Shown here one piece after another: positions 30,529 through 58,772 of a DNA stretch of 64,000 nt. Positions within the stretch are counted from its first letter, which is position 1. Every line of letters begins with the position of its first letter. The notes below the pieces were generated by a model. It saw only the letters and a program-made list of their open reading frames with translations, made no database searches and was not told the DNA's origin. Source of the stretch: Eledone cirrhosa (Eukaryota). Made by a program: the position numbers and the translations under genes. The DNA is taken from positions 387,748,001 through 387,812,000 of the forward strand of contig OZ024740.1 in assembly GCA_964016885.1 (NCBI GenBank), in the 5' to 3' direction.

Positions 30529-33072
30529 TAACAAAGCCACAATTCGGTCTTTGTCTGACTAAAACGGGTGCGTGTTGCTCGAAACCGAGCAGATGTGTGA
30601 AGCTTTTCAGCAGCACTTTGCTGAACTGTTCGGGAGCAACGGCGGCCCGGATCGGGGTATGGACTTCAGTGCATACCTCGACGGATTGCCTCGGCTCTCG
30701 ACGACCGCAGCACAGTGTTGCGAAAAGCCAATAACAGCCGGTGAAATACGGGAAGCGATGGCAAACTGCACGAGGTGTAAATCGCCAGGTTTGGATGGTC
30801 TGCCCTACGAGCTTTATGCATTTATGCCAGACTTGTTCGGTGACCCCTTCGCAGACGTCTACTGCAACTGGCAGCAGAACGGGAGCATTCCAAGTTTTGT
30901 GAGCCGGGGAGCGGTGGCGCTGCTGAGAAAATACCCAAACAAGGTGGATGTTATCGATGATTTCAGGCCCATAACCCTGCTAAACGCAGAGTTCAAGATT
31001 TTGGCCAAGGTGTTAGCAACGAGGCTGGCGCTTGTCGTCAGGGTCTGGTGGGAGAGGCGCAGACATGCGCCATTCCGGACAGATCCATACACGATAACCT
31101 CCACCTCATGCGATACATCATAGAGAGGGTGGTTAAGGAACCTGGCACGGGTGGGGCCCTGATCAACTTGGATCTATCCAAAGCATTCGATAGGGTCGAC
31201 CATCGGTACCTGGCGGCGGTCCTCGAAGCAGCCGGTTTCGGGCCCGTTTTCAGGGGTTGGATCGCTGCGATGTACAGCGACATCTGCTCAGTTGTGAGGG
31301 TGAACGGTCACTTGTCGCAGCTGTTCAGCATCATGCGCTCGGTACGCCAGGGTTGTCCCCTCTCGTCCCTCTTGTACGTATTGGCTCTCGAGCCGTTACT
31401 GCACAAACTGGGGGCGATGAGGGGCGTCCCACGCGAACTAGGATGCGGGAAATCCGAGTCGGCTTACGCCGACGACGTCACCGTGGTGGTGTAGAGCACC
31501 AGACACGTCCAGATACTCAGCAACGCTCTCAAGGAATACGAAGCGGTGACAGAAGCAAAGATAAACGAGGAAAAGTCGATGGGCTTGCAGCTCGGCACCT
31601 GGAGAGGCAAGTCCATGCCATCTGACAGCGTCGTGGGGCGTTGGACAGACGGACTGGTTAAATTGCTCGGGGTCTGGTTCGGACCGGACCTCCAGATGGA
31701 GAAAAACTGGAACGAGGTGACGAGCAAGGTGGCCTCCCTCACCCAGAAATGGGCCGATAAGAAGCTGTCCCTGAAAGGCCAGGCGGAGGTGGCGAATGCA
31801 TACATCGCATCCATCATCTGCTACCGGCTCACCGTCGTCCCTTGCCCCGGCCCAACTCTCACCAAAATGGAGCGCCTCCTCTTCCGCTTTTTGTGGAGGG
31901 ACGCGCTTCCATGGTCAGACGATCCATCTGCTGTCAACACCCGTTGCGTGGAGGACTGGGCATGCCATGGCTGATGATGCGCAAACATGCACTGAGGCTG
32001 CGACATCTCTGGTGCTTCCTTGACGGTGAACAGGTCTGGTGGCCGTTCGCCAGGCACGTTTTCCCACAGCTCGTCTCATTGACGGAACTGCAGTCCTGGG
32101 TCAGAAAAAGACCGAGGGATAGCGCTTGGAAACTGGAATGTCTCCAGGCGCTCACTGCCCTCTGCCAGCTGGGCACCAGTATCGTTCTATAGAGGACTAG
32201 TGGAGGGGAAGAGCGACAACGTACTCGGAGAGATCCTGGGCGTCGAAGAAGATCAGCTATTTGCTCTCTTCCGGAGAACTTTCAGACCAGGGCCTATGGA
32301 TAACTTCCCAAAATCCCTGTCCTGGCAGTGCTACCGGGGAGCGCTGCCGGTTCGAGATAAGCTCTACAGGCACGGAAGTGCCGTCAGACGAGCCTGTCCG
32401 AGATGCGCGCAGAGCGACGAAACCGTCGTGCACGCACGCGTTCAGTGCCCGAGCATTGCTGACTTATGGAGCTATGTCGAACAGTTTCTGTACGCGTGTA
32501 GGACTGATCCGGTTATCGACTGAGTCCATTGTGCAGATGGTCGCGCCGTCTTCCTTCGAGGAGGAAGGGCAGGCGGGTTTCATCTGCCTGGTGGCCATGG
32601 CGAAAGAGATTGTGTGGTGGACAAGGTTGAAAGGGTTAAAGACAGACACTTTTTCAAGTTTCACTTGAAGAGGAAAATCAGGGTGGAGAGGCAAGTGCTG
32701 CTTTCTAGCAAGTTTGTTGAAAGGTGGGTGAATGTAGCGAGAATGGTCCGAGTGAACGGGACCGCTCTGAATATACGTCTGTAGTTTGAGAAATGGAAAA
32801 ATTGAGAGAGGGTGCTTGCCCTGGTGGTTAGGGTGGCCGTGGTCTTTTGTGTGGTTTTCGCCACGAGTAACCCTCGGATTTTCCCCCCTATTGGGGAATT
32901 TTTCATTGTTTCAATTTTCATTTTTATTGTTTATATATATATATGTTTCTATGTCTTTTTTTTATTTTTCTTATATGAATAATAAAAATATTTACACGCA
33001 CAAAACCCACATTGTACCGTCCTGACCGTCCTATTTTTCTTGATGTCAGCCCTTGTGGCCAATAAAGAAATC
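30529..33072 (+). mobile_element. Tx1/L1-clade LINE, 5'-truncated, decayed (T1)
   Basis: KSPGLDGLPYE, FRPITLLN, LDLSKAFDRVDH, VRQGCPLS, YADD, CPRC...ETVVH...C; 3' UTR with AATAAA and (TTA)n tail. Confidence 0.93.
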
Positions 33073-33096
33073 ATTATTATTATTATTATTAATTAC

Positions 33097-33279
33097 TTTT
33101 AATGGGCTTTCTCCACAAATGTCCCTTGGAAGTCTCCCCCTATTGGGGAATTTTTCTTTGTTATTTTATTTCAACCTCTGTTTTTTTACACGCAGAAATG
33201 CCCATTTGTACCGTCCTGTATTGTCCTGTACTGTCCTTAATGTCTACTTTATGTGAACCCTTGTGGTTAATAAAGAAAA

Positions 33280-33282
<3 letters not shown>
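33097..33282 (+). mobile_element. Tx1 3' UTR-only insertion (T2)
   Basis: Nearly identical to ~45800-45983; bounded by (TTA)n. Confidence 0.88.
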
Positions 33283-33340
<58 letters not shown>

Positions 33341-33341
<1 letters not shown>

Positions 33342-33979
33342 TTCTTTGAGTCTCAGTCATTGATGTTAGTTAACTGGAAAGTTTGTTGAAATGAATATCA
33401 AGCCACTACCTGCAACCTCAGATATTCAGGACGTATCGGAGGGTTCTTGCTGTTCCCAGCAAGCATGCCTTTTGAAGCGTTCCAAAAAGTGTGAAGGGGC
33501 CAATTTTCTTTAACCATCCCTGGAAACTTTTTGAGATAGTCCCTAGTGCGCCTATGACAATCGGGATCACTTTGACTTCATAGCAGTTCCAAATCCTTTT
33601 TACCTCCCACTTTAAGTCCTGGTATCGGTTAATTTTCTCCCTCTCCTTCTCTTGCACTCTCGTGTCGAATGGGCAGGCCACATCCACAATCAGGCACGAT
33701 CTTTTTTCCTTGTCCACAACCACCAGGTCAGGTCTATTGTGTTCCAGTTTCTTGTCCGTCTGTATCCTAAAATCCCACAGCACCTTCACCTGATCGTTTT
33801 CTATCACCGACTCTGGCTTATGCTCATACCACTTCTCAGAATGTGGTAAATTGTTTACTTTGCATAGGTGCCAGTGGGTCACCCTACCCATCACATCATG
33901 TCTCCAGCCCTTATAGTGGGTCTGGGCTAGGTGTTTACACTCGGATACAATGTGAGCCACAGTCTCCTCTCTCTCCACA
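33341..33979 (-). mobile_element. R4/Dong-clade element family A, 3' fragment (D1)
   Basis: [18 protein letters not shown] and KINRYQDL restriction-like endonuclease; between (TAA)n tracts. Confidence 0.92.
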
Positions 33980-34018: not shown

Positions 34019-37000
34019 CCTTGAATCTCAGTCATTGATGTTGGTTAACTGGAAAGTCCGTTGGATTGAATATCAAGTCACTACCTGCAGCCTCAGATAT
34101 TCAGGACGTATCGGAGGGTTCTTGCTGTTCCAAGCAAGCATGCCTTTTGAAGCGTTCCAAAAAGCGTGAAGGGGCCGATTTTCTTTAACCATCCCTGGAA
34201 ACTTTTGGAGATAGTCCCCAGTGCGCCTATGACAATCGGGATCACTTTGACTTCATGGCAGTTCCAAATCCTTTTCACCTCCCACTTTAGGTCCTGGTAT
34301 CGGTTAATTTTCTCCCTCTCCTTCTCTTGCACTCTCGTGTCGAACGGGCAGGCCACATCCACAATCAGACACGATCTTTTTTCTTTGTCCACAACCACCA
34401 GGTCAGGTCTACTGTGTTCCAGTTTTTTGTCCGTCTGTATCCTAAAATCCCACAGCACCTTCACCTGATTGTTCTCCATCACCGCCTCTGGCCTATGCTC
34501 ATACCATTTCTCAGAATGTGGTAAATTGTTTACTTTGCACAGGTGCCAGTGGATCACCCTGCCCATCACATCGTGTCTCCAGCCCTTATAGTGGGTCTGG
34601 GCTAGGTGTTTACACTCGGACACAATGTGAGCCACAGTCTCCTCTCTCTCTCCACAGATCCTGCACAGTGGGCTAGCCTCCTCCTTGTAGATATGGTGCT
34701 TCAACCACTTCGTTTTGAGGGCCTGCTCCTGCGCAGCCATTAGCATTCCTTCTGTAGCCTTTTTGAGGTCTCCTCTTCTCAACCAGTTCCATGTCTGTGG
34801 ATCTCTAAATTCAGTTTTCTCAAAGAAGGTACTATGAAGGGATTTTCCCTTAAGGCTGCTCTTCCTCCTTGATGTTATTTCCTCCTTGGACATCCCCTGG
34901 CCTACTGTCCCCTCCTTCAGTACAGTCCTGAGCATTGGCTCCTTACTATAGGTCACGTATTTGTATAGGTTGTTTTTCTCCATCTGAACACAGTCCTCTA
35001 TGCTGATAAGACCTCTTCCACCCTCAGATCTCCTTAGGTAGAGTCTATCGACATCACTCCTCTTGTGGAACATGTTGTAGATAGTCAATAGCTTCCTAGT
35101 CTTCCTATCCATTTCTTTTTGTTCAGCAACATTCCATCTCAGAATTCCCGCACTGTACCTAATAATAGACACAGCTCGGGAATTTACTGCGCTTATGGCA
35201 TTTCTGCTGTTCAGATGTGACTTCAATACGCTCCTTACTCTCCGAATGTATTCAGTTCTTAACAATTCCTTCATTTTTTTGTTCTTTATGCCATCAGCCT
35301 CCAGAACGCCCAAATACTTGTATCCTTCCTCAGAGTCAATTTCCTTTATCATCTCACCTGTTGGTATCTGGATCCCGTTACTTCTGCTCAACCTACCCCT
35401 CCTCATCACAATGACTCCACATTTACCAATACCAAACTGCATACATATATCACTGCTGAAAATACGGACAGTGTCAACAAGCACATCCAACTCCTTCTCA
35501 CTTTTCCCGAAGAGCTTAAGATCGTCCATGAAGAGGAGGTGATTGATGGTAAGCTCTCCCCTTCCCAACTTGTATCCTGCTCTCACTTTTCGCAGCATAA
35601 TGGTCAAGGGCATCAGGGCAAGGACAAACAACAGAGGGGACAGGCTATCTCCCTGGAAGATACCTCTCTTGATCTTCACGCTTCCCAAGGATACTCCAGT
35701 TGATGTCATACTCCTGCCTAGCAACTGTCTGATGTTATCTGCCACCCTGAAGATCTCCAGGCTTTAGGTGATCCAGGAATGAGGCACCATGTCAAATGCC
35801 TTTCTGTAGTCTATCCATCCCATGGCAAGATCAGTGTGTCTCCTCCTGCAATTCCCCATTACCATCTTATCAATAAGTAACTGGTCCTTTGTACCACGTG
35901 ACTTCTTTCGGCATCCTTTCTGTTCGTCCGGTAACAAGTTGTTTGTGTGGAGGTGATGGTAGATTTCCTCAGACACAATGCTCGTCAACAGTTTCCACAT
36001 TACGGACAGACATGTGATAGGTCTATAGTTGGTAACATCATTACCCTTGATTCGGTCTTTCATTATCAGAACTGTGATACCTTTTGTCAACCACTCTGGC
36101 ACCTCACCCGACACCAAGCAGTCATTGAACATGGCCGTCAGCTTCGGGTGGAGGGATGTTAAATGTTTAATCCAATACCCCTGCACACCATCTGGGCCTG
36201 GTGATTTCCAGTTGGTTAGTTTTTTGGCCTGCCCCTTAAGAGTTTCAACTGTGATACTCAAATCTGTTTGTTGTTGTGCCTGCTCACCGATCTCCCTCTG
36301 TACTGTCTCAATCCACCCTGCCTGGGCATTGTGTCTAACATCCTGCTCCCATATTCCTCTCCAGAATGTTTTAGTTTGCTCCGCCCCAGGGATCAAGTCG
36401 TTGCCTCTTTCTTTCCCCTCAAGCTGTCCAAACAGCATCTTCTGGTTGTTGTCGAACATGCGGTTCTGTTTATACTGACTGACTCTCTTCTCGTATCGCC
36501 TGATTTTTGCACTCTTTGCTACAATGCGTTGCTTCAGTTCCTCTATGATAATATTTAGCTTTTTCCTCCTAGTTTTGTATTTTATTTCCAGTCTATTTTT
36601 AGTGCCTATGTTTTTTAGTGTCCCATTCAGTAGTGACTCAAGCTTTCCTATGTCATTTCTCATTTCCCCGATTTGCCCACTCAGTCGCTTCTTCCACCAC
36701 GGCTCTGCTCTTTCTTGTCTGTTGTTTCCTCTCGCTTTTATACCAAGTAGTTTCCTCACCGTATTTGCTGTTGCTTTAAGGATATTGTTGCACTGGTGAA
36801 GGCTCCTCGCCTCAAGGTATGGGATGACTTTGTTTACCTTAGCTGTTGTTTCTTTTAACTTTTTCCTGTCTACAAATCTTAGGTTCATAGGTCTCCCACT
36901 ATCATTGTTCAATTCATCTACCACTAAATTTAGGATGTCAACCGAATCTTGTCCTAGCCCGTCAGCATTCATCTCCTCAGTGGCCGTATCTCTGTTCCAG

Positions 37001-37810
37001 GTATTATTTATCTCAGTATTCAGATCATTGTCTGCTTCGGGTGGTTCCTCCGTTCTCAGGACCTCTTCACCTTCATTTCCCACTGGCTCGCTTGTCTGGC
37101 ATACTACACCCGCCATCTCCAAGCCATTCTCTCTGCTCAGTTCCTCCAGTTCCAGCTCGCTTATCCATCCATTAGTTCTTATTACCCGAGCCTGCCCGGC
37201 CAATTTTTGTTCATCTAATTTAAATAAACCAATCTCGTTCCAGATGTTATGCATCCGTCTCCTGTAGCCCCTCTCCTTGGGGTTACTTTTCAGGTAACAT
37301 TGCATAACAGTTCTATTCAATTCTTTCGTCCAGTTGGTTCTGGCCCCTTTCCTTCTTCTCCTTCCTCCAACATCAGCAGTATTTGGTTGACAGTCAGGTT
37401 CCTGCTGCTGAGCCAGGGGGCACCTGTTGGGTGAGAGTCTGTCACATGACGTTCTAGTCTCCATTTCACCGTTATTCGAACTGTTTATGTTCGATATTTA
37501 AACACTCTTATCGAGGATTGGCGAATGTATGGTTACATATCCATCTGTGGATCCGCCAATCCACTTGGCCCTTGTGTGGCATTATCACCACGCTGTATAC
37601 GAACACACATAAACAAACAAACACACAGGCAGAAAGGGCCCCAAAAATGAATAAGCATAAGTTTCATTGTAATGTAGTGTTCGAATGTCTGACTTAATTT
37701 TTGTTTTTTAAGATTTAGTTTTTCCCCCCTCTGTCCATCCGCCTGCTTCTCTCTTCATTCTTATTTTCTTTACGTTTTTTGTTTTTTTTTATTTTTTTAA
37801 TTTTTTTTAA

Positions 37811-37864: not shown

Positions 37865-37865
<1 letters not shown>

Positions 37866-39987
37866 CTTGAATCTCAGTCATTGATGTTGGTTAACTGGAA
37901 AGTCCGTTGGATTGAATATCAAGCCACTACCTGCAGCCTCAGATATTCAGGACGTATCGGAGGGTTCTTGCCGTTCCAAGCAAGCATGCCTTTTGAAGCG
38001 TTCCAAAAAGCGTGAAGGGGCCGATTTTCTTTAACCATCCCTGGAAACCTTTGGAGATAGTCCCCAGTGCGCCTATGACAATCGGGATCACTTTGACTTC
38101 ATGGCAGTTCCAAATCCTTTTCACCTCCCACTTTAGGTCCTGGTATCGGTTAATTTTCTCCCTCTCCTTCTCTTGCACTCTCGTGTCGAACGGGCAGGCC
38201 ACATCCACAATCAGGCACGATCTTTTTTCTTTGTCCACAACCACCAGGTCAGGTCTATTGTGTTCCAGTTTTTTGTCCGTCTGTATCCTAAAATCCCACA
38301 GCACCTTCACCTGACTGTTCTCCATCACCGCCTCTGGCCTATGCTCATACCATTTCTCAGAATGTGGTAGATTGTTTACTTTGCACAGGTGCCAGTGGAT
38401 CACCCTGCCCATCACATCGTGTCTCCAGCCCTTATAGTGGGTCTGGGCTAGGTGTTTACACTCGGACACAATGTGAGCCACAGTCTCCTCTCTCTCTCCA
38501 CAGATCCTGCACAGTGGGCTAGCCTCCTCCTTGTAGATATGGTGCTTCAACCACTTCGTTTTGAGGGCCTGCTCCTGCGCAGCCATTAGCATTCCTTCTG
38601 TAGCCTTTTTGAGGTCTCCTCTTCTCAACCAGTTCCATGTCTGTGGATCTCTAAATTCAGTTTTCTCAAAGAAGGTACTATGAAGGGATTTTCCCTTAAG
38701 GCTGCTCTTCCTCCTTGATGTTATTTCCTCCTTGGATATCCCCTGGCCTACTGTCCCCTCCTTCAGTACAGCTCTGAGCATTGGCTCCTTACTATAGGTC
38801 ACGTATTTGTATAGGTTGTTTTTCTCCATCTGAACACAGTCCTCTATGCTGATAAGACCTCTTCCACCCTCAGATCTCCTTAGGTAGAGTCTATCGACAT
38901 CACTCCTCTTGTGGAACATGTTGTAGATAGTCAATAGCTTCCTAGTCTTCCTATCCATTTCTTTTTGTTCAGCAACATTCCATCTCAGAATTCCCGCACT
39001 GTACCTAATAATAGACACAGCTCGGGAATTTACTGCGCTTATGGCATTTCTGCTGTTCAGATGTGACTTCAATACGCTCCTTACTCTCCGAATGTATTCA
39101 GTTCTTAACAATTCCTTCATTTTTTTGTTCTTTATGCCATCAGCCTCCAGAACGCCCAAATACTTGTATCCTTCCTCAGAGTCAATTTCCTTTATCATCT
39201 CACCTGTTGGCATCTGGATCCCGTTACTTCTGCTCAACCTACCCCTCCTCATCACAATGACTCCACATTTACCAATACCAAACTGCATACATATATCACT
39301 GCTGAAAATACGGACAGTGTCAACAAGCACATCCAACTCCTTCTCACTTTTCCCGAAGAGCTTAAGATCGTCCATGAAGAGGAGGTGATTGATGGTAAGC
39401 TCTCCCCCTCCCAACTTGTATCCTGCTCTCACTTTTCGCAGCACAATGGTCAAGGGCATCAGGGCAAGGACAAACAACAGAGGGGACAGGCTATCTCCCT
39501 GGAAGATACCTCTCTTGATCTTCACGCTTCCCAAGGATACTCCAGTTGATGTCAACTCTGTCTCCCAGGACCCCATACTCCTGCCCAGCAACTGTCTGAT
39601 GTTATCCGCCACCCTGAAGATCTCCAGGCTTTTGGTGATCCAGGAATGAGGCACCATGTCAAATGCCTTTCTGTAGTCTATCCATCCCATGGCAAGATCA
39701 GTGTGTCTCCTCCTGCAATTCCCCATTACCATCTTATCAATAAGCAACTGGTCCTTTGTACCACGTGACTTCTTTCGGCATCCTTTCTGTTCGTCCGGCA
39801 ACAAGTTGTTTGTGTGGAGGTGATGGTAGATTTCCTCAGACACAATGCTCGTCAACAGTTTCCACATTACGGACAGACATGTGATAGGTCTATAGTTGGT
39901 AACATCATTACCCTTGATTCGGTCTTTCATTATCAGAACTGTGGTACCTTTTGTCAACCACTCTGGCACCTCACCCGACACCAAGCA
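37865..39987 (-). mobile_element. R4/Dong family A, 5'-truncated with uninterrupted RT-RLE ORF (D3)
   Basis: 681-aa open frame 37939-39984, nearly identical to D2. Confidence 0.95.
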
Positions 39988-40023
<36 letters not shown>

Positions 40024-40035
40024 GTTATTGTTATT

Positions 40036-40243
40036 CCTTGAATCTCAGTCATTGATGTTGGTTAACTGGAAAGTCCGTTGGATTGAATATCAAGCCACTA
40101 CCTGCAGCCTCAGATATTCAGGACGTATCGGAGGGTTCTTGCCGTTCCAAGCAAGCATGCCTTTTGAAGCGTTCCAAAAAGCGTGAAGGGGCCGATTTTC
40201 TTTAACCATCCCTGGAAACCTTTGGAGATAGTCCCCAGTGCGC
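40036..40243 (-). mobile_element. R4/Dong family A, short 3' fragment (D4)
   Basis: Matches the D3 3' end; (TAA)n on both sides. Confidence 0.92.
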
Positions 40244-40320: not shown

Positions 40321-40321
<1 letters not shown>

Positions 40322-42988
40322 AGTTGCATTTATCTTGCTTTATGTTCATACGAGTTATCACCAAGTCACAACCAGTGACCTCAAGAGACAACAAGGTCCG
40401 CCATGTTCAAGAAAGAACATACATACTCACACATGCATCTTTAGTGTTTAGACTTGTGATGTACTTATATTGACAGAATCTTCCTTAGTATATGGGCAGT
40501 TCCCATTAGTACTATCTTTTGTATTTCTCCTATACGCGGGTTTCCTGGGATTTCTGATAAGTAATCATTAGACCCGTTAGGTATCATTCCCAGAGCGCCT
40601 ACAACCACTGGTATTGTTTGAGTTCTCAATTCCCACATTTTTCCAATTTCTATCTCCAGGTCCTTATACTTGCTCAATTTTTCAAATGTTTTTATAGATA
40701 CATTCTTGTCTATTGGAACGGACATATCAATTAGCAGGCATACCCTCTTTTTAAAGTCCTTCAGTATTATATCAGGTCTATTTGCATCTATTTTTCGGTC
40801 TGTTTGGATGCTAAAGTTCCACAAGATTGAGATGTGATCTTTTTCAAGTATGGGAGGTGGTTGATGCTCCCACCAATTCTTTTGATGGGGCAGGTCAAAA
40901 TGCTTACACATTATCCAATGTATGTATTGTGCAGCTCTGTCATGCCTGTTTAGGTATTCGGTTGGAGCTATAGGACTGCACATTGAAATTATATGGTCAA
41001 TGGTCTGTGGTTGTTTTTTGCATACACGGCATAATGGGCTGCATCCATTTTTTATTATGTTGGCTTGGTAATTTTTTGTTGGCAGACACTGATCTTGTGC
41101 TGATATAATCAGTCCTTCAGTCTCCGATTTCAGTCCAGAGGATGCCAACCACTGATGGGTTAAAGTTTTGTCAACATCAGGATTGTTAGCTCGTTCTGGG
41201 TATTTTCCATACAGAGGCTTTTCTTGCCATTTCTTAGCCAGTTTCTGTAGCAGTTCTTTCTTTGCAGTTACTTTTACCTGCTTTGCTTTTTCTGTGTTTT
41301 CCATTTCAGCAGTAAATGGGACTTCTGGAATGTGTAGTCCATTACTGTATCTTTGTGCATCTTTTGTAATGGAACATGATCTTTTGATGCTTTCGTGTTT
41401 CAAAACGAGTTTGATCATCCAATCATGTGATTCCCTTAGATATGTAGATAATCCAATTGTTGCAGTTTTCAACGCAATGTCTAACTGGATTAACCCACGT
41501 CCTCCTTCTTTCCTAGGGAGATATATTCTATCTATATCTGCCTTAGGGTGATGCATTCTGTGCATGGTTAAGAATTTTCGAATTTTTGTATCGAGCCTAC
41601 GGATCTCTGTGCTTGACCAGTTGATGACATTGTAACTGTAGGTTACTACTGGTATGGCAAGCGTGTTTATGGCATCGATCCTATTCCTTGCATTCAATTC
41701 CGTTCTTAAGATTGCTCTTACTCTGCGGTAACATTCCTTCCTTATCCTTTCCCTCATTGTCGAGTGCTTGATTCCGTCTCCTTCACAAACACCTAGATAT
41801 TTGTAAGTTTTTTCTTGATCAAGTTCTCTTATCACATTCCCCCGATCAAGATTAATGTCTGAACTCTTCAGCAGCTTTCCTCTGGTGAACGTTGCTTTGG
41901 CGCATTTATCTAGTCCAAACTCCATTTTAATGTCATCACTGAAGTGCTCCACAGTGGATAATAGCCCTTGCAATTGTTCATCATTTTTTGCAAATAGTTT
42001 CAGGTCATCCATGTAGAACAAGTGATTAATGGTTTTGTCATAGACTTTATATCCATGTTTTGTTTAATTGAGCATTTTACTTAATGGTATAAGTGCGATG
42101 CAGAATAAAAGCGGTGATAAAGAGTCACCCTGAAAAATTCCACAATTAATATTAACTTCTCCAGCTTCCAGTGATTTTGTTTCACTATTCAAAAGGAGTG
42201 TCGTTTTCCATGTCTTCATACTGAATGACAAAAACCTCCTGACAACGGGGGATATTTTGAAAATCTCTAAACATTTTTCAATCCAACTGTGGCAAACTAT
42301 CGAATGCTTTTTATAATCTATCCAAGCAATTGATAGATTTTTGTGTCTATTATGACAATCTTCCAGTATCATTTTGTTAACCAAAAGCTGATCCTTACAG
42401 CCATATGAGCCTCGTTTACACCCTTTCTGCTCAATGGAAAATAGGTCATTTGTTATCAGGTGGTCATATGTATATTCAGTTAGGACTGATGTTAAAATTT
42501 TATACATTGTGGTCAAGCAAGTTATCGGTCTGTAATTTTTGGGATTGTTTGTCTCATCATTCTTCGGAAGCAGGAATGTAATGATGGTATCTTTTCTGGC
42601 TCCTTAACTATTTCATTGTAAAGTTGGGCTAACAGCTCGTGAGACTCTGTGAAGGCATTTATCCAAAAATTTTGTATTTTGTCTTTTCCTGGGGATTTCC
42701 ATTTGCTGGTTTTTCTTAGAGCCAAGCGCAACTGTTCAACTGTTATATTTTCCCATATTTGTTCTTCAATGTGAGCTGTATCTTTCATTTGTCTGTCTAT
42801 CCATGGGGCATGTATGTTATGAACTTTTTCTTCGGCCCAGATCTTTTCCCAGAATTCTTGCACTTCCTCCTTGGGTGGTATTGATTTAGCAGTTATTGTT
42901 GACTTACCAATTTTTCTGTAGAAGTTTCTTTGGTTGTTTTTGAACATATTATTGTCCTTATAGAATCTAGATCGTTTTTCAAAGCGCC
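40321..42988 (-). mobile_element. R4/Dong-clade family B, 5'-truncated (D5)
   Basis: Divergent RT-RLE (FYMDD, NRHDRAA, ANRPDIIL, KLSKYKDL), different 3' UTR, frameshifts; (TAA)n on both sides. Confidence 0.93.
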
Positions 42989-45983: not shown

Positions 45984-46030
<47 letters not shown>

Positions 46031-46255: not shown

Positions 46256-48231
46256 ATGGAAATTTTCGACCTTGAAACGGTAAACAACGTTCAGGTCAAA
46301 AGTTTAAAGGCAGCCACTGCAGATTTCACCACGACTACGACGGCTACAGTCATGCCTGTCATCCACTCTACTGAATGTGAAGGCAAAACTAAAAAGCTAC
46401 CATCACAACCTTCTGTGATAGCAGCAGTATCATCTGAAAACGACATCACCACCACCGCCACCACCACCACCACCACAACAACAACAACTCAGAGCAATAA
46501 CGACAAAAACACCGACAGCTTCAATGTAAACAAGGATGGCGGTGGCAACAGCAAGAATGACAACAACAACAATAAGAGCATCAGAAACACCACATTTGCT
46601 GCAGCAGCAGCAGCAAAAACAAAGCGCTTATTGAATATCGATATTGATATTAGCGATAAAGACGAACAGTTGGCCAAAGCGTGGAGGCTAATTAAACGGG
46701 AGAAGTCCTGGGCAAACCTGACCATCCCGGACGAGGCAATAGCGGCCATGCAAAGGAGGACGGTGCTCTTTCGATGTATTTCGGTGCAGACACGAAAAGT
46801 GGAACTTGCGAGCCAAGCAGAGGTAGAGGCTGCTTTGGAGTACATCGGAAGTAACATAGAGTACAAAGCAAGAGGCAAACAGTTCGGTACCATCTCGGTA
46901 CTGTTCAAATCCGAGGCCCTCGCTATTAAGCACTCGGTGATCCCCTGCAGAACGGAACGCATTATCATGCATCCGTCCTATATGGGTAAAAGGACAGTGA
47001 AGGTACGCATTCCCAGCATCCTACCAGGAATGAACATATGGTGGCTGCTGGGATGCGTAATCGAGGAGGGGACAGACACCACCCTCCTGGACATCAAAAG
47101 GACAGAGAGAGAAGACTGGTCCGGAATGGATTTGGAGATTCTTCTCCAAATGAAACCGGAGGATATAAATAACATCCCAGATTTTGCCCGCCTGCAGGAC
47201 GGGACAACAATCCAACTAATGATTGACGGAAGAAGGCCACGCTGCTTCGTTTGCGGGGAAGCCACGCATCTTCAAGCCTTCTGCCCTCAGCGCAAAAATG
47301 CAGGGGGTCGCAAACCTCCTTTGTTGCCAACGCCAGTGTCAGCACGGAAAGCTGCACCACCACCACCACCAAAAACAACATCAACAAAACACGGACACCA
47401 ACATCAAAAGCAGCCGGATCACCACCAACACCAAAACCAATCCAAGGAGAAAACGAGGAAAGCTCTCCCACTCCCCCTACCCCCCAACTATATACATAGA
47501 AAAAAAAAATAAACGCACACACAGACACAGAGACACTCACAGACACAGACCCTTTGTCTTCCAGCAGCGAAGATGAAGGAAAACCCAAAAGTGCAAAAAA
47601 ACAGAGAAAACTCACAAAAAAAAAAAAGCCCCTACAAAACACAAAAACACACACAACAAAAAATACAGTCACCACTAACGCAGACACTTCCCCAATAACA
47701 TCAGCACCATCAGCAACATCGACACCACCACCACAATTCCCGAAACGCAAACAACCTAAACAAACACAAGTACAAATAAACACACAAATACCTGAAATTG
47801 CAGACACCACACCTACAACAAACATAGACATACCCGAAACAACACCACCAAAACCATCGCCACCACCTTCACCAAAACGAAAACAAATAAAACCACACCA
47901 ACAAAATGTTAAAAACTTCGTGCTTGTCAGAAGGGCCAACGATAAACTGATGGCCCTCTTAGCGCGAAGCGAGGACATTCAAACAGAGGGGGAGATTTTT
48001 GAAATGAGCACATTTTGCGTGCCAGAAGATTTGCTTCTGGTCCGAATGTCACTCAATTCCTTTAAAGAAATTCGAGAGAGCTTTCCTCAAGACGTGGGAA
48101 ACCCGAATGTGAAACCCACATCAAGACTTTTAAAGGGGTTCCCAAAAGAAACCCCACCAACCATGGAGGTCGAACCACCCAACCTTCACAAGACCCGGGA
48201 GGTAAGTAAACCTTCCCTCTCTCTCTCTTAG
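46256..48231 (+). pseudogene. Tx1 ORF1p (gag-like, CCHC knuckle)
   Basis: RPRCFVCGEATHLQAFC, Thr/Pro/Lys-rich linker; frameshift separating ORFs 46256-47512 and 47554-48231. Confidence 0.8.
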
Positions 48232-48240
48232 CTTACCAAT

Positions 48241-51200
48241 ATGGCCATATTAAGAGTAGGAAATTTAAATGTTCGCGGCCTGGGGTCACCCTGGAAGCAG
48301 GGTCGCCTGCTCAACGACCTCCGGTCGCTGGAAATGGATGTGATTGCCGTAAGCGAGACCAGAATTTCCGACACGCGTGCACTAGCCCCCATTTTCGACG
48401 ACTATCAGATCTTCGCATCTGTTAGCAAGCCGGGAATGGGGGGTGGGGTGGCAGTGCTGTTTAGGAAAGGACTGGAACTCGAGGTAAGGTCGATCTTCCG
48501 GGACCCGGACGGTAAGTTGGTGGTCTTGGATGTGAGCAGTAGCGAAGGTGGTGCCTTTAGACTGCTGGCCGCCTACGCCCCTACAGGGGCCGGACGACCT
48601 GACTTCTTTAGGCGCCTGGAGACCTTTCTGGATACGTCTCGCCCTTTACTGTTAGCGGGGGACTGGAATGGCATCTTAGACGCACGCTGGGATTGTGTGG
48701 GAGTAGCCGATAGGAGCGGGGGGTGCAAAAGCCTCAAGCACCTACTCAGCCAGTTCCAACTGTCTGACAGGTATCGACTAGATTTCCCCAATGTGCCAGT
48801 ATGGACATGGACCAACCGAATGGGGTCATCTAGATCGTATATAGACAGAATCTTCATTAGGAAAATAGATAGAAATAGTGTGGGCTGTCCACTTTTTAAA
48901 ACGGTCGCCTATTAAGATCACAAATTTGTGATCTGTGTGGTCGACCTAAATAAAACGCGTAGGTTAGGACCGGGTTACTGGAAGCTGAACATGTCATTTC
49001 CGGCACGTAAGGCTTACAGGGACCGAGTCAATAAGTTAGTTAAGCAAAAGTTGACAGGGGGGATCATCAACAACAGATGGTGGGGGGCTCTCAACAGAGA
49101 GATTAGAGTAACTTCGATAGAGTTCAGCAAAGAACTAGCGTTAGAGAAAAATAGAAAGGAGGGGAGCTGGTAGATAAGTTAGACGAGGCTATTTGTAGTG
49201 GCATCGCAACTGACGTGCTAGCAGCGAGAATGGCATTAGACCATTTCTTCAATGCCAAACACGAAGGTTGCATTGTCAGAGCTAAGGCGCGTGCGCTGAG
49301 AAACGAGGGAACTAAAGCTGTTCGATGGGCCCGCGTGGCGGAGGCGCAGCGTGGTAATAAAACCACAATTCGGTCTTTGGCGGACCGAGACGGACACGAG
49401 ATAAGCGATTCCAAGCGGATGTGTGAGGCCTTTCGCCAGCACTTTGCTCGGTTGTTCAGGGAGAGTGGCGAGTTAGAGAGAGTAGCGGATTTCAGTCCCT
49501 ACCTTGACGGTTTGCCGCGCATCTCGACGGTCGACGCTGAACGCTGCGAAAGGCCGATTACTTCAGCCGAAATTCAGGACGCCCTTGTCGGCTGCATGAG
49601 GCGCAAGTCACCCGGCTTGGATGTCCTGCCCTACGAGCTTTACGTAAATATGCCAGACTTGTTCTCCGAACTCCTCGAAGCACTCTACTGCAACTGGCAG
49701 CAGAATGGGAGTATTCCCAGTTCTGTGAGCAGGGGAGTGGTGACGCTGATAAGGAAAGACGAGAACAAGAGGGATACATTAGACAACTTCAGGCCCATAA
49801 CTCTGCTCAACACAGAGTTTAAGATTTTGGCCAAGGTGTTAGCAAAGAGATTGGCGCTTGTCGTCGAGGATTTGGTTGGGGAGGCGCAAACTTGCGCAAT
49901 CCCAGCCAGGTCCATACACGACAATCTCCACCTCATGCGATACATCATAGAGAGGGTAGGGTGTAAACCTGGCTTCGGTGGGGCACTGATCAATTTAGAT
50001 CAATCGAAAGCATTCGATAGGGTCGACCATCGGTATCTGGAGTTTATCCTCAAAGCAGCTGGCTTCGGCCCTGTCTTTAGAAGCTGGATCGTTGCAATGC
50101 ACAGCGGCACACGCTCGGTGGTCAAGGTTAATGGCCACCTCTCGGAACCATTTCGGCTCTCCCGATCGGTCCGTCAAGGGTGCCCTCTCTCTTCCCTTCT
50201 GTACGTATTGACTCTCGAGCCTTTACTGCGGAAGCTGGAGCTGTTGCAGGGCATCCCGCTCGAACCGGGACGTGGAAAGGCGGTGTCGGCTTATGCGGAC
50301 GACATCACCGTGATGGTGTCGAACACCTCAGAAATCGAGGTGGTCGGCACCTTATTGAAGGAATATGAAAGGTTGACAGGAGCCAAACTTAACCCGGAAA
50401 AGTCGGTGGGCTTGCAGCTCGGAACCTGGAGAGGCAAGCCCATGCCGTCCAACAGCGACGTGGGGCGCTGGACGGACGGACCAGTAAAGTTGCTCGGGGT
50501 TTGGTTCGGACCAGACCTCCAGGTGGAAAAGAATTGGGACGACGTAACGAGCAGAGTAGCCAGTCTCACCCAAAAATGGGCTGGTAGGAAGCTATCACTG
50601 AAAGGTCGCGCGGAGGTGGCGAATGCGTACATCGCGTCCGTCATCTATTACCGCCTAACCGTCGTGCCTTGCCCCCGTCCGCGCCTCGTCAAGTTGGAAC
50701 GGCTCCTCTTCAAATTCTTGTGGAGGGGACAAGTTCCGTTGGTGAGGCGGTCCATCTGCTGCCAGCACCCTCTACGCGGAGGGCTGGGCATGCCGTGGCT
50801 AATGATGCGCAGACATGCGTTGAGGCTGCGACATCTCCAGATATTCTGCCTCAATGGTGAACAGGTGTGGTCGCCGTTTATCAGACGGGCCTTTGCGCAG
50901 CTCATTTCTTTGACTGAGCTGCAGTCCTGGGTCAAGAAGAGACCGAGACTGGGTGACTGGCACCTGGAATGTTGCCAGGCACTCACTGCCCTCTACCAAG
51001 CGGGCAATGCGATCAGTGGAACTTCCACTCTCGAGTTCTATAGAGGATTAGTGGTGGGCAAGTGCGATGACGCACTCGGAGAAGCTTTGGGCCTCGACGA
51101 AGTCGAACTGACCAGTCTGTACCGGAGGACTTTTGAGCCGGGGACGATGGACAATTTCCAGAAATCCCTCGCTTGGCAGTGCTACCGGGGGGCACTGCCG

Positions 51201-51662
51201 GTTCGGGATAAACTCTACAGGCACGGAAGTGCTGTCAGACGGACCTGCCCAAGATGCGCACAGAACGACGAAACCGTTCTGCACGCACTTGTCCAATGTC
51301 CGTGCATTACTGACTTGTGGAGTTATGTCGAACAGCTACTGTCGCGTGTGGAACGAATGCGGCTATCGGCCGAGTCCATAGTGAAGATCGAGCCGCCACC
51401 TTCCTTAGGTGAGGAAGAGCAGGACATTTTCCTCTGTCTGGTGGCAGTTGCGAAAGAGATTATATGGTGGACCAGGTTGAAAGGACTAAAGACAGACACT
51501 TTTCTCTTCGGCCAATCCCTCATCAACTTCTTCAAGTTTCACCTGGAAAGGAGGGTGAGGGTGGAGAGAGAAGTGCTGCCCCCCACTACATTTGCTAAAA
51601 GGTGGGTGAATGTGGCGAGAATGGCTCGTGTGAATGGGCCTACTCTGACCATGCGCCTATAG
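48241..51662 (+). pseudogene. Tx1 ORF2p (APE endonuclease, RT, zf-RVT)
   Basis: NLNVRGL, VSETR, YAP, AGDWN, SYIDRI and DH motifs; RT YADD; stop at 48913-48915 and frameshift near 49160. Confidence 0.92.
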
Positions 51663-51938
51663 GCTGGCTAACTTGAGGAGAGGGGTGCTCTCCTGGGTGC
51701 CCTAGAAGCGCAGGGTAGTTCAGGATTGGTGGGGTACCCGAATCACCCCAGGGTCATCCACCCCCTATCGGGGAATTTATTTTGTTCTATTTATGCATAG
51801 TTTATTTTATATTTTTATATTTTCATTGTTAAATTAGTCTTGCGATTGTGCACTTTTACTCGACCTTATTGTAAACCCCCACTGTCCCTGTCTTTGTATT
51901 GTCCCCTACATGTCGGCCCTTGTGGCTAATAAATGAAA

Positions 51939-51970
<32 letters not shown>

Positions 51971-51977: not shown

Positions 51978-52794
51978 CTCTTTGAGTCTCAGTCATTGAT
52001 GTTAGTTAACTGGAAAGTTTGTTGAGATGAATATCAAGCCACTACCTGCAGCCTCAGATATTCAGGACGTATCGGAGGGTTCTTGCTGTTCCCAGCAAGC
52101 ATGCCTTTTGAAGCGTTCCAAAAAGCGTGAAGGGGCCAATTTTCTTTAACCATCCCTGGAAACTTTTGGAGATAGTCCCTAGTGCGCCTATGACAATCGG
52201 GATCACTTTGACTTCATGGCAGTTCCAAATCCTTTTTATCTCCCACTTTAAGTCCTGGTATCGGTTAATTTTCTCCCTCTCCTTCTCTTGCACTCTCGTG
52301 TCGAATGGGTAGGCCACATCCACAATCAGGCACGATCTTTTTTCTTTGTCCACAACCACCAGGTCAGGTCTATTGTGTTCCAGTTTCTTGTCCGTCTGTA
52401 TCCTAAAATCCCACAGCACCTTCACCTGATCGTTCTCTATCACCGCCTCTGGCTTATGCTCATACCATTTCTCAGAATGTGGTAAATTGTTTACTTTGCA
52501 TAGGTGCCAGTGGATCACCCTGCCCATCACATCATGTCTCCAGCCCTTATAGTGGGTCTGGGCTAGGTGTTTACACTCGGATACAATGTGAGCCACAGTC
52601 TCCTCTCTCTCTCCACAGATCCTGCACAGTGGGATAGCCACTTCCTTGTAAATATGGTGTTTCAACCACTTCGTTTTGAGGGCCTGCTCCTGCGCAGCCA
52701 TTAACATTCCTTCTGTAGCCTTTTTAAGATCTCCTCTTTTCAACCAGTTCCATGTCTGTGGATCTCTAAATTCAGTTTTCTCAAAGAAGGTACT
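51978..52794 (-). mobile_element. R4/Dong family A, 3' fragment (D7)
   Basis: CCHC plus RLE, near-identical to D2/D3; (TAA)n on both sides. Confidence 0.92.
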
Positions 52795-52812
52795 ATTATT
52801 ATTATTATTATT

Positions 52813-55800
52813 GAATGCTATGGTTGACGGAGGCTCGGCTCTGTAAGGTATTGTAAATTTTGAACGCTTTAACAATTGTAAATTGTTTAAAACTTTTACC
52901 AACTTGTAGACAAAAACACCCTCCTCCTCGTGACAGGGGTCTTTCTGCCCGTTATTTGGCCCTTCGGGGTTAAATAACTGCTTATTGGGGTTTTGTGCCC
53001 AATATTTATTTTAAACAAAAAAAAAAACAACATGGCTACGAAAAAGAATTTTCATAGGTCACTCCCACTCATTCCGTCTTCTTCTTCCTCAATCGTCACT
53101 ACAGCAGAGAGAAGATTGTCTCTCTCCCTCCCTTCTTTAAATGTGTCTCTCTCCCTCCCTTCTCTTTCGTAAGCGACGACAGAACAGAAAAGTCTCGTGC
53201 AAAGCGTGTAAGATTTCTCCACGACGACGACGACAGCGACGAAACAGGTGTGCGGGAAATACGAAAACCCATTTCATTCGTCTGACGTCAGGAATAATAG
53301 CAGTAGCAGCCGTAATAACAACAGCAACAGTGACAATGAAAACAACAGTAGCAGACGCAACAGCATCAGCAGCAGCATAAACAACAACAGCATTAGCAGC
53401 AGCAACACCAACAACAACCACAGCAACAGCGGCGGCGGCAGTAGTCGTAGTACCTGCAGCAACAACAAAAGTAACAGCAGCTCTGACGACAACAACAACA
53501 ACAACAGCAGCAAAGAAAAACCAATCTCGTTTGCAGGTATCGCGAAGAACCTGGAAACAATCCTCATAACAAATGAGTAATTAGAGCAAGCGAAGAAGAT
53601 GGTGACAAAAACTGGACACCGAGCAATTTGCAAGGCAGCGGAAAAATTTTTCGAAACCCAACAGCACTGTACGGTCACGTAACGTACAGTAAGTACAAAA
53701 TCCCGTAGGGTGGAAAGAGCCACAGAGGCTCAAATACAAAAAGCCTTGGGGTCTGTGTGGCAGCGGAAAACACACATCACCCGAGGCAAGAAATATGCCA
53801 CCGTAGACGTACTTTTGGCTACACCCCAGGAGGCAAAGGCTCAATCCGTAGTGACCCTAAGGAGCGAGGAAATGGTGTTGGTGCCCTCCTACTGCGGGTA
53901 AAAAATTGTGAGGGTCAAACTGACCCACGTCCCCCCCACCCCGGATGGCCACTTCTTGGCTGGCCGCGTCTGTCCTCGTCGGAATCGAGGACAAAACAAC
54001 TGTACTGCAAGTACAGAAAAAAGTAAGAGAAGATTGGGTCGGCACCTCCATTGAGATGTTAATCCAAACCAACCAGGAGTGCATCGAAGCTATCCCGGAT
54101 GTGATAGACTTCGATAACGGCACTCAACTGCCCATAAGTGTTGAGGGCAAACGCCCGAAATGCTTTCGCTGTGGATCGAAGACTCACCTCAGGGCCTTCT
54201 GCAACGAGAAGACCCTGAGAAAGGAGAAAACCCCCCTCCTTCCGAAACCGGCTCAACGGCTACCAGCAACAGGACAAGCGGCAACCAGGAACGATAGGTC
54301 CGTGGCACCCATACCCACGCCACTGAAACCAAAAACAGCAGCAGCAGTGGAAGTATTAACAACAACAACAACAGCAATACCAAATGCAGCTGCAACAGAG
54401 ACTCCTGTGCAAACATCACCAACAACAACAAGTGAAAGAGTGGAGCTGGTACCCCTCCCCGACCTCACAGAATCAGACATGGAGTGTGAGGTGGGAGAGG
54501 GATGGCAAAAGGTCGTAAGAAGGCACAAACGCAGAAGCAGCGCATCGTCGCCTTTGAAAAGGGAGGAAAGAAATGAAAAAAAGGGTAAAGTCTACTGCAA
54601 AGAGACTCACAGCAGCAACACCACCCACACTAGCACCACCATCACCACCGGCGACAACCCCACCGCCAACAACAACAACACCTTCAACACCACCACCACA
54701 AGCACCAACATAGCAAACACAACAACAAAACACACACACCCAGCAAAAACGACAAGAAAATAGCAGAACCACACCCCACACCCAGAAAAACAAATGCACG
54801 GCAATAAATACACACAACAAGAAACTAATGACTTACATAATTGAACACACAGACATTTCACAACACGACTACATAATACCAGCACCAATCAAAACGCCAA
54901 CTAACATAAGACTGCTAAAAATAGCACAGAAACAATACACAAACATTAAAACGAAATTCCCCAACGCAGTAGGTGATTTCAGAGACCTAGGAGGAACTAT
55001 CAACCGAAGAGTATATTCGGACATACTCATAGAAGAGCCGATGACCAGCCGAAGGGACGATTCAACGGTCCCTTCACCAGACGATCAAGTGAAAAGGGAT
55101 GTAAAAACCATCCCTCCTCTACCAAAAGTACGGTAAGTGGTCTTTCCCATCTTTTCCACTCTATGTTAAACATGACCTCACTCAGAATAGGCAGCATAAA
55201 TGCGCGTGGCTTGGGGTTGTCATGGAAGCAGGGCCACCTGCTCAACGACTTCAGGTCACTAAACATAGCGAGACCAGAATCTCCGAAGCACGGGCCTTCG
55301 CACCGATCTTCGGCGGCTACGATGCGTACGCATCTCCCAGCCGTCCTGGGTCGGGGGGAGGAGTTGCTGTACTTTTTCGGAGAGGTTTGGATCTCGCCAT
55401 ACGGGCCATCTTCCTGGACCCAGAGGGTAAGTTGGTGGTGCTGGACGTGACCAGCGGAGACGGGCAAGCTTTCAGGCTAGTGGCCGTCTATGCTCCGACA
55501 GGAGCAGGGCGGCCTGATTTCTTCCGGCGCCTGGAGATCTTTCTTGGAACCACCTGCTCTTTAGTGTTAGTGGGCGACTGGAACGGGATCTTAGATGCAC
55601 GCTGGGACTGTGTGGGATTAGCGGATAGGGGTGGAGGGTGCAAGAGCCTCACCAACCTGCTCAGGCGTTTTGAACTGTCTGACAGGTACCGATTGGATTT
55701 CCCGAATGTTCCAATGTGGACTTGGACAAATCGCATAGGGTCATCCAAATCATATCTAGATAGAGTATTATGTAGGGAAATAGATAGGTCTAGCATAGGC

Positions 55801-58670
55801 TGTCCACAATTCAAGATAGTCAGCTACACGGACCACAAATTCGTGACCTGTGTGCTTGACTTAGATAGGCTTCATAGACGAGGACCCGGCTACTGGAAGC
55901 TAAACGCGTCCTTACCAGCGCGCAAGGCCTACAGAGACCGGATTAGCGAACTAGTTAAGCGGGCGTTGACGGGGGCCATCGTCAACAACAAGTGGTGGTT
56001 TGCTCTGAAAAGAGCGATTAGAATAGAATCGATTAGGTTTAGTAAGGCTTTAGCAATAGAGAAAAATAGAGCAGAGGGAGAACTAGTTAGAAAATTAGAC
56101 GAGGCGCTTAGCAAAGGCATTGCGACCGACGTGCTTGCGGCGAAATTGGCCCTTGACCAATTCTTCAATGCAAAGCACGAAGGCTGCGTTGTCAGAGCTA
56201 GGGTGCGTGCTCTCAGACACGAGGGGACGAAAGCCGTTCAATGGGCCCGAATGGCGGAGGCGCGTCGTGGCAACAAAGCCACGATCCGGTCTTTGGTGGA
56301 CCACGACGGGCGCATGCTACTCGATCCCGGGCAAATGTGTGAAGCTTTGAAGGGGTAAATCGCCTGGTTTGGATGGTCTGCCCTATGAACTTTACGTACA
56401 GATGCCAGACTTGTTCGGAGGCCTCTTGGCGGACGTCTACTGCAACTGGCAACAGAACGGGAGAATTCCCAGTTCTGTGAGCCGAGGAGCGGTGGCACTG
56501 CTGAGAAAGGATCCGAACAAGGGGGATAACATAGAAAATTTCCGGCCCATAACTCTGCTAAACACAGAGTTTAAGATTTTGGCCAAGGTGCTAGCAAAGA
56601 GGTTGGCGCTTGTCGTTGGTGGTCTGGTGGGAGAGGCGCAGACATGCGCCATTCCCGACAGATCCATCCACGACAACCTCCACCTCATGCGATACATCGT
56701 AGAGAGGGTAGCTAGGGAACCTGGCACGGGTGGGTCCTTGATCAATTTAGATCAGTCGAAAGCTTTCGATAGGGTCGACCATCGTTACCTAGCGGCAGTC
56801 CTGAGGGCGGCTGGCTTTGGGCCCGTCTTCAGAGGCTGGATCGCTGCCATGCACAGCGACATCTGCTCTGTGGTGAGAGTGAACGGTCACCTGTCGGAAC
56901 CGTTCAACATCATGCGCTCGGTCCGCCAAGGATGTCCCCTCTCGTCCCTCTTGTACGTATTGACTCTCGAGCCATTACTGCACAAACTGGAGACGTTGAG
57001 GGGAGTCCCGCGCGAACTAGGATGCGGAAGATCCGTGTCAGCATATGCGGACGATGTCACCGTAGTGGTGTCGAACGCCAAACACATCGAGGCGATCGGC
57101 ACTACACTAAGAGAATACGAAGCGGTGACAGGAGCAATGATCAACCAGGAAAAGTCAGTGGGCCTGCAGCTCGGCACCTGGAGAGGCAGGTCCATGCCGT
57201 CCAACAGCGTCGTCGGACGCTGGACGGACGGACCGGTTAAATTGCTAGGGGTCTGGTTCGGTCCGGACCTCCAGACGGACAAAAACTGGGACGAGGTGAC
57301 GAGCAGGGTGGCTTCTCTCACCCAGAAATGGGCGGAGAGGAAGCTATCCCTGAAAGGTCGAGCGGAGGTGGCTAACGCGTACATCGCGTCTGTCATCTGC
57401 TACCGCCTGACCGTCGTACCTTGTCCTAAGCCCCGCCTGACTGCGCTGGAGCGTTTGCTCTTTCGCTTTTTGTGGAAGGGACGTGCTCCGATGGTCAGGC
57501 GGTCCATCTGTTGTCAACACCCGCTACGTGGAGGGCTGGGCATGCCGTGGCTGATGATGCGCAGGCACGCGCTCAGGCTACGACATCTCCACCTCTTCCT
57601 CGACGGTGATCAGGTGTGGTCGCCGTTTGCTAGGCGCGTATTTCCCCAGCTCGTTTCCTTGACGGAGCTGCAGTCCTGGGTCAAGCGAAGACCGAGAGGG
57701 AGCGCCTGGAGACTGGAATGTCTTCAGGCGCTCACAGCCCTCGACCAATCGGGCAATGTGATTGGTGGAAACTCCACCTTGGCGTTCTATAGAGGATTAG
57801 TGGAGGGTAAGAGCGACGACGTACTTGGGGAAACTCTAGGCGTCGACGAAAATCAACTAGCCAATCTCTTCGGAAGAACTTTCGGGCCGGGGCCTATGGA
57901 CAACTTCCAGAAATCTCTGGCCTGGCAGTGCTACCGAGGAGACTTGCCAGTTCGGGATAAACTCTACAGGCATGGAGGTGCCGTCAGCCGGGCATGTCCG
58001 AGATGCGCGCAGGGCGACGAAACCGTCCTGCACGCACTCGTCCAGTGTCTGAAAATTGCTGACTTGTGGGTTTATGTCGAACACCTGCTGTCGCGTTTAG
58101 GACGGATCCGGCTATCATCTGAGTCCATCGTGAGGATTGCCCCGCCCTCCTCCTTTAGCCGGGAAGGGCAGGCAGTTTTTATCTGTCTGGTGGCCATGGC
58201 GAAAGAGATAGTATGGTGGACACGTTTGAAAGGGCTGAAGACGAGCACTTACCTCTTCGGTGATGCTCTGATTGACTTTTTCAAATTTTATTTGAAAAGG
58301 AAAATCAGAGTAGAGAGGGAAGTGCTCTCTTCCCAGCATTTTGTTGAAAGATGGGTGAGAGAAGCAAGAATGGCCCGAGTGAATGGGCCTACTCTGAGTA
58401 TATATCTGTAAATTGAAGGTGGAAAACTGGGAGAGGGCACTTGCCTTGGTGGTCAGGGTCATTGTGGTTTTTTACTGGGCTTTCTCCACAAATGTCCCTC
58501 CGAAGTCTCCCCCCTATTGGGGAATTTTTCATTGTTATTTTCATTGTTATTTTTGTTACATCCTCTGTTTTTGTTTTTTACACGCAGAAATGCCCATTTG
58601 TACCGCCCTGCATTGTCCTGCACTGTCCTTAATGTCTACTTTATGTAAACCCTTGTGGTTAATAAAGAAA

Positions 58671-58672
<2 letters not shown>
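52813..58672 (+). mobile_element. Tx1/L1-clade LINE, near full length with internal deletion at ~56350 (T5)
   Basis: Decayed ORF1 ~53032-55136 (CFRCGSKTHLRAFC); ORF2 55163-58411 (APE, RT). The segment between MCEA and KSPGLDG that is present in T4 and T1 is missing. Confidence 0.94.
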
Positions 58673-58717
<45 letters not shown>

Positions 58718-58772
58718 GTTGTTGTTGTTGTTGTTGTTATTTTATATAAATATATATATATAAAGGGTAACG

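Follow-up and report, generated by a model that had tools for sequence, protein, structure and literature searches.

What brings two unrelated clades of retrotransposon, equipped with different classes of endonuclease, into one simple repeat and in strictly opposite orientation? The question is raised by a 64,000-nucleotide stretch of the genome of the octopod Eledone cirrhosa (GenBank assembly GCA_964016885.1, contig OZ024740.1, positions 387,748,001 to 387,812,000 of the forward strand), referred to below as the window, where tracts of (TTA)n, which read (TAA)n on the other strand, separate closely packed long interspersed elements (LINEs). Those on the plus strand are of Tx1 type, with an apurinic-type endonuclease (APE), and those on the minus strand are Dong-like, with a restriction-like endonuclease (RLE). 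The reading favoured here, at a probability of about 0.7, is that both clades enter (TTA)n/(TAA)n with fixed and opposite polarity, likely through priming on opposite strands, and that insertions likely leave fresh repeat behind, so that nests grow. The nest in the window is a large case of a pattern that is common across the genome.

The nest in the window

The nest (30529-58740) consists of 12 copies in the order T1+ T2+ D1- D2- D3- D4- D5- D6- T3+ T4+ D7- T5+, where T stands for Tx1-type and D for Dong-like. Inspection of the sequence, Pfam searches of 42 frames, self-BLAST and an element map all confirm what a sequence-only reading of this stretch had proposed, namely five Tx1-type copies, all on the plus strand, and seven Dong-like copies, all on the minus strand. 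The former are copies with APE, reverse transcriptase (RT) and zf-RVT domains, or 3' fragments of such copies; the latter carry RT and RLE. Every copy in the window is truncated or broken.

From the left, T1 (30529..33073) is a 5'-truncated, broken copy retaining RT, zf-RVT and the 3' untranslated region (UTR), with a 5' flank that is not TTA, and T2 (33096..33281) is a 186-bp 3' UTR fragment of the T3/T5 type with TTA on both sides. An origin of the T1 left flank as an inverted 5' piece was tried, and no support for it was found. The six minus-strand copies that follow are D1 (33346..33975), a 5'-truncated copy of Dong-like family A; D2 (34019..37809), a long family A copy with RT, CCHC and RHD/PD..D..K RLE motifs, one stop in the RT and a truncated 5' region; D3 (37865..39988), a 5'-truncated family A copy in which the RT-RLE frame is open; D4 (40036..40243), a short 3' fragment of family A; D5 (40321..42988), a member of a second RLE family, B, 38% alike to family A at the amino acid (aa) level; and D6 (43068..43539), a 5'-truncated copy of a divergent family A subfamily. 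T3 (43610..45984) has an intact 5' end, a first open reading frame (ORF1) of type 1 and an internal deletion at ~44977. T4 (46030..51941) is full-length (ORF1 with a CCHC knuckle, APE, RT and zf-RVT) and bears frameshifts and stops. D7 (51982..52794) is a further 5'-truncated family A copy, and T5 (52811..58673) is nearly full-length, with ORF1 type 3 and an internal deletion of ~166 bp.

(TTA)n stands at all 11 internal junctions and at the right end of the nest, in twelve tracts of 16-79 bp (33074-95, 33282-345, 33976-34018, 37810-64, 39989-40035, 40244-320, 42989-43067, 43540-609, 45985-46029, 51942-81, 52795-810 and 58674-740) that sum to 625 bp, a figure that takes in a few bases of Dong 3' ends. 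No copy in the nest lies within the body of another, and mapping with elements taken from the window gives no Tx1- or Dong-family match elsewhere in it, both as the sequence-only reading had it. Within 10 kb to the left and right of the window the only match to either group is one 114-bp fragment at 69%. A 60-bp (TTA)20 tract at 28167-28226, 2.3 kb to the left of the nest and at the tail of an element that we take to be RTE-like, is unoccupied.

Target use and polarity across the genome

Queries from three Tx1 families (5' ends), from two Tx1 3' ends and from Dong family A (5' and 3' ends) were run against the 3.0-Gb genome (1796 contigs, several of them chromosome-scale), and for each the best-scoring 30 of 500-2400 candidates were taken. 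Unselected DNA, 60 stretches of 10 kb (600 kb), served for counts of tracts and nests. Three TTA units (TTA x3) are found within 30 nt upstream of 86/87 full-length Tx1 5' ends, the window's own three copies being left out, and upstream of 20 of the 33 5'-truncated copies (at least 90% identity, internal deletions left out). For random positions, with 31 nt upstream considered, the background rate is 410/108,840 (0.38%). All Tx1 3' tails are likewise TTA. For Dong, as read by eye, 3' ends lie at a tract in 30/30 cases and visible truncation junctions in 16/16. Among 30 full-length Dong 5' ends, which include three groups of duplicated loci, 22 are at most two mismatches from (TAA)5, and TAA runs occur within the 60 nt inspected at all 30.

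Polarity is nearly as uniform. Across 531 unique tracts, drawn from the window and from loci L001-L260, Tx1 ends run along the TTA strand in 243/245 cases and Dong ends along the TAA strand in 233/235; the ends of a short interspersed element (SINE), considered below, keep to one polarity in 115/121. Two of the four Tx1/Dong exceptions are accounted for by 5' inversions. At one locus (L170), where the repeat switches from TAA to TTA, a Dong and a Tx1 copy point the same way; relative orientation turns with the repeat, so polarity goes with the repeat strand rather than with the adjacent element. The arrangement of TTA junctions is repeated at scores of loci spread over many chromosomes. A (TTA)n-specific Tx1 lineage, postulated from the window alone, is supported. 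Random 5' flanks, with TTA as a 3' tail only, and random orientation had been named as grounds for abandoning it; genome-wide the 5' flanks are TTA and the orientation is all but invariant. When contigs of four runs were compared with the T4 3' end, a TTA loose end appeared in run X1 (67 contigs, agreement 0.56), which may share a source and is not counted as independent.

At some loci the Tx1 ORF1 region is interrupted by other sequence (L271:1028-6698; L278:1748-3125), so element bodies are not always spared genome-wide.

Nest frequency and probable growth of the target

Counted per 10-kb piece, 8/10 runs of these elements in unselected DNA are single-copy and the two multi-copy runs are both mixed Tx1/Dong; around selected matches, 13 of 19 multi-copy runs are mixed. 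Within the 600 kb, 13/45 TTA tracts touch these LINEs and hold 41% of the tract bases. Tracts that adjoin LINEs are longer (median 30 bp versus 15 and 12 bp, p=0.001). The longest of the free tracts measures 66 bp, whereas the nest contains 625 bp of repeat. Splitting of a single tract is therefore insufficient, and repeat was likely added, which lends support to the earlier suggestion that the array is self-growing.

Directly upstream of the 87 full-length Tx1 copies lie 33 opposed Dong elements, 13 Tx1 elements, 16 SINEs in the same sense and 22 other sequences, with three exceptions, so that 46/87 (53%) have a Tx1 or an opposed Dong element as their neighbour. As this rate is near the 41% share of the target, insertion proportional to the repeat on offer would roughly account for it, without any attraction between the clades.

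Identity of the two lineages

The second ORF (ORF2) of the Tx1-type elements contains Exo_endo_phos, RVT_1 and zf-RVT (Pfam), both in window copies and in an open ORF2 of 1143 aa, which is one of two near-intact copies found outside the window (1143 aa, L267; 1105 aa, L275). The endonuclease domain matches L1 endonuclease structures (E about 1e-7). ORF1 matched no Pfam family; all three of its types, which are 34-50% aa identical to one another, have a CX2CX4HX4C knuckle, in keeping with the sequence-only count of at least three ORF1 types alongside two Dong families. The closest named relatives of the plus-strand RT are from Argonauta hians (66%). In a FastTree analysis of 140 RT rows picked by similarity, none of them a mammalian L1, Kibi or Koshi row, a group of 49 rows (SH-like 96) contains both the window elements and Xenopus laevis Tx1 ORF2 (P0355); within it the window elements and the Argonauta sequences form their own branch (support 100), apart from the fish and frog group. 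Given the APE-RT-zf-RVT ORF2, the CCHC ORF1, the RT tree and target-specific insertion, the plus-strand elements belong to the Tx1 clade of the L1 group. A metagenome scan gave mostly distant matches (24-43%), ESM Atlas matches carry generic L1/RT names, and cluster look-ups yielded no informative names. The sister branch to the octopod Tx1 elements is made up of ~1150-aa ORF2s (about 42%) from ENA assemblies (the P0006-P0028 group).

T3 and T5 have ORF2 and 3' UTR in common, their difference being confined to the 5' UTR/ORF1 part. This exchange of a 5' module sets two Tx1 families apart, with ORF2 and 3' UTR 94-98% alike and different 5' UTR/ORF1 (ORF1 about 49% aa); examples are T3 43610-44976 against T5 52811-55100 and loci L245, L254 and L280.

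The Dong-like translations have one ORF with RT, CxxC..H..C, RHD and PD..D..K. Their best PDB matches place R2 (E 3e-26) ahead of L1 (E 5e-8), and the RLE stretch aligns to R2. The Dong/R4 name for the minus-strand elements rests on anatomy, the TAA target and characteristic motifs rather than on a tree; the 120 homologues listed of 1860 include no named reference by which Bombyx mori Dong or Ascaris R4 could be told from NeSL, HERO or R2. The longest Dong copy in the window is without about 0.8-1.4 kb of 5' sequence found in copies elsewhere. In full-length family A copies this is a low-complexity region of variable length, 0.8-1.4 kb (L258:6330-7200; L396, L399, L415), and some 5' junctions of the family bear short repeats of the element's first bases. 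Capture of the region from a Tx1 5' UTR/ORF1 was rejected: matches are of low complexity only, and all 30 such 5' ends continue into Dong. For a hepatitis delta virus-like ribozyme at the Dong 5' junction, four loci gave no relevant Rfam match, and a crude pattern, applied without a positive control, matched nothing; both tests are weak. At one locus a truncated family B copy is followed by ~30 tandem copies of a 26-nt piece of the family (L132:2472-3239).

A SINE and a (TATC)n sister family

By one query the SINE accounts for about 2.6% of unselected DNA, and it often occurs in tandem. Its copies in the window lie outside the nest, at 14260-14435, 22861-23043 and 29690-29876 (-). The last ~27 nt resemble four Tx1 3' ends, with 7-22 of 2000 shuffles reaching the score, which is modest support; no likeness is seen to the 3' ends of D2 (1844 of 2000 shuffles reach the score), D5 (201) or the RTE element (1922). 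Flanking duplications of 8-20 bp are present at 32 of 77 3'-complete copies in unselected DNA, and 27 of these 32 start with ATTA, so likely marking the nick. TTA x3 follows on the 3' side in only 4/77. The SINE was considered as a full third colonist of the arrays and rejected as such, being mostly outside long tracts and not specific to (TTA)n arrays.

A related Tx1 family, 70-84% identical in nucleotides to T4/T5, is associated with another repeat. Read by eye in the best 30 of 2438 candidates, its tail is (TATC)n at about 20 loci and (TTA)n at none; TATC also marks several of its 5' junctions and tandem neighbours, and the family forms tandem nests of its own (L184:8572-8850 (-); L211:489-560; L361-L390).

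Mechanism and competing explanations

In target-primed reverse transcription (TPRT) the primer strand is the complement of the RNA 3' end. Under this model a Tx1 RNA ending in (UUA)n would pair with a nicked (TAA)n strand and a Dong RNA ending in (UAA)n with a nicked (TTA)n strand, reverse transcription being primed in each case from the nick, which would place nicking and priming by the two clades on opposite strands. If Tx1 is the partner of the SINE, the APE would nick after 5'-TAAT-3' on the A-rich strand, with a stagger of about 8-20 nt. Mammalian L1 cuts the T-rich strand, the reverse of the A-rich-strand cut suggested here for Tx1. The target would be renewed through duplication, the repeat tail and slippage, giving fresh repeat on both sides of the insertion, and the two clades would need no interaction, each using whatever repeat is at hand.

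Several points weigh against this account or limit its reach. The left edge of the nest, the T1 5' end at 30529, has no TTA and adjoins GA-rich DNA, a correction to the sequence-only picture, which stands for the 11 internal junctions and the right end. Thirteen of the 33 truncated Tx1 copies have no TTA x3 upstream; several of these have ATTAT only, one lies at (TTC)n, one has a 5' inversion, three are joined directly to a Dong body and one to other DNA. The specificity of Tx1 for TTA is therefore not absolute. Selection of the best-scoring candidates favours young copies, and longer element-side tracts could come of a preference for long tracts as well as of growth. Readable target duplications amount to one clean Tx1 case (14 bp, starting with ATTA, at L092) and no clean Dong case; they are few because pure repeats hide duplications. 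Finally, the partnership of SINE and Tx1, suggested by a short 3' likeness, has modest standing.

Among the alternatives the one that survives best, although it is unlikely, holds that the endonucleases have little preference for sequence or strand, and that polarity and target are decided almost wholly by pairing of the RNA repeat tail at whatever nicks or slippage breaks AT-rich repeats offer. Such pairing fits a SINE that probably uses the Tx1 machinery and needs only ATTA(T), a sister family that changed tail and target together to (TATC)n, and the few Tx1 copies in TTC or very short TTA. The SINE duplications, on the other hand, keep to one phase and a limited range of lengths, which suggests a defined cut, and in TRAS/SART and Tx1L it is the endonuclease that sets specificity (PMC4494074). 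Endonuclease preference and RNA-tail pairing are not separated by the present data.

Formation of the array by tandem duplication, or by unequal crossing-over between TTA tracts, in place of repeated insertion is very improbable. In its favour, D2, D3 and D4 are 98-100% alike over their 3' 200 nt, duplicated loci occur at other places in the genome and a tract is lacking at a few Tx1-Dong joints; yet each copy in the nest has its own 5' truncation point, four types of Tx1 are intermingled with three subfamilies of family A (83-100%) and with a second RLE family, and other nests show other copy orders. That TTA is merely a 3' tail, or that the array was misassembled across TTA repeats, is scarcely credible: the tail is indeed on all Tx1 3' ends and the 28-kb locus is known here from the assembly alone, but 5' ends, truncated ones included, also lie at TTA, the tracts are only 16-79 bp long and the same joints recur at dispersed loci.

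Entry of both clades into the repeat from opposite strands could form part of a wider, self-seeding system of three parties that would shape octopod genomes, a reading put forward tentatively and as less likely than not. The Tx1 machinery would spread a SINE that inserts at any ATTA and so plants TTA seeds; Tx1 and Dong would fill these from opposite strands and enlarge them into hotspots of transposable elements (TEs); and the Tx1 lineage would have switched between (TTA)n and (TATC)n. Were this so, the switch would provide naturally paired, closely related endonucleases that differ in the repeat they target.

Other features of the window

The presumed RTE-like element (26286-28235, +) encodes an RT with C-terminal C2H2 zinc fingers, and its compound tail ends in (TTA)n; T3-family copies occupy the same tail at L171, L173 and L176, whereas in the window it is empty. 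A remnant of a Tc5/pogo-type DDE transposase (HTH_Tnp_Tc5, DDE_1) lies at 4503-6014 (+), and a 40-bp minisatellite with 9.2 perfect copies at 12964-13330.

Comparison with known systems

Kibi at (TC)n, Koshi at (TTC)n and crocodilian Tx1 at (TTCC)n/(TTTC)n are described as microsatellite-specific LINEs of the Tx1 clade (PMC4494074). Like the elements of Eledone they have APE, RT and zf-RVT, two ORFs and microsatellite insertion with fixed polarity; they differ in that the target here is (TTA)n, with a sister family at (TATC)n, and the host is an invertebrate. Dong elements of B. mori, Anopheles gambiae and a snail (DongBg) are TAA-specific, and the list of microsatellite targets in the same source gives TAA for Dong only (PMC3812793); Dong is placed in the R4 lineage (PMC3774820). 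An RLE element with (TAA)n at both ends is what is found here as well, with no essential difference beyond the coexistence of two families only 38% alike.

The convergence of an APE clade and an RLE clade on one target also has precedents, among them R1 and R2 in 28S rDNA. Keno (Tx1, APE) and Utopia (RLE) both use one site in the U2 snRNA gene (PMC4640811). Their 3' flanks are identical, indicating the same site and direction within a gene, whereas in Eledone the polarities are opposite and the target is a dispersed repeat that insertions probably renew. Opposed families that form arrays in one simple repeat are exemplified by TRAS and SART in the telomeric repeats of B. mori (PMC10088271); both belong to the APE-bearing R1 clade and lie at chromosome ends, unlike the two enzyme classes and interstitial tracts described here. 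In Octopus vulgaris, L1-Tx1 and Dong-R4 elements are both listed as recently active and TE hotspots are remarked upon (PMC13282606); the word "target" is absent from the main text of that paper, its supplement being outside the scope of the comparison. The present arrangement offers a mechanism for such octopus hotspots, and a caution for marker work in these animals, where TTA microsatellites often lie next to LINEs.

The choice of site and strand by microsatellite-targeting LINEs has been described as not well understood (PMC3812793). In this single genome two enzyme classes meet on opposite strands of the same repeat, alongside TTA and TATC sister families, near-intact ORF2 copies and a SINE that reports the cut; with these materials, endonuclease preference and tail pairing can be tested against each other directly.

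The literature compared takes in PMC4758252, PMC10294476, PMC3747384 and PMC8967140 as well. Full-text searches found neither a (TTA)n-specific Tx1 nor the antiparallel APE/RLE combination; Repbase, Kojima and Fujiwara 2004 and the supplements of Tx1 and octopus papers lay outside their scope and could record the target. The sequence-only reading knew of no description of the dual-clade arrangement, and this is sustained for the combination but not for its components, co-targeting by APE and RLE elements and opposed sharing of a repeat being already in print. Each ingredient has a precedent; within the literature searched, the TTA target for Tx1, the antiparallel pairing of APE and RLE elements, and the additions of the SINE and the TATC family appear to be new.

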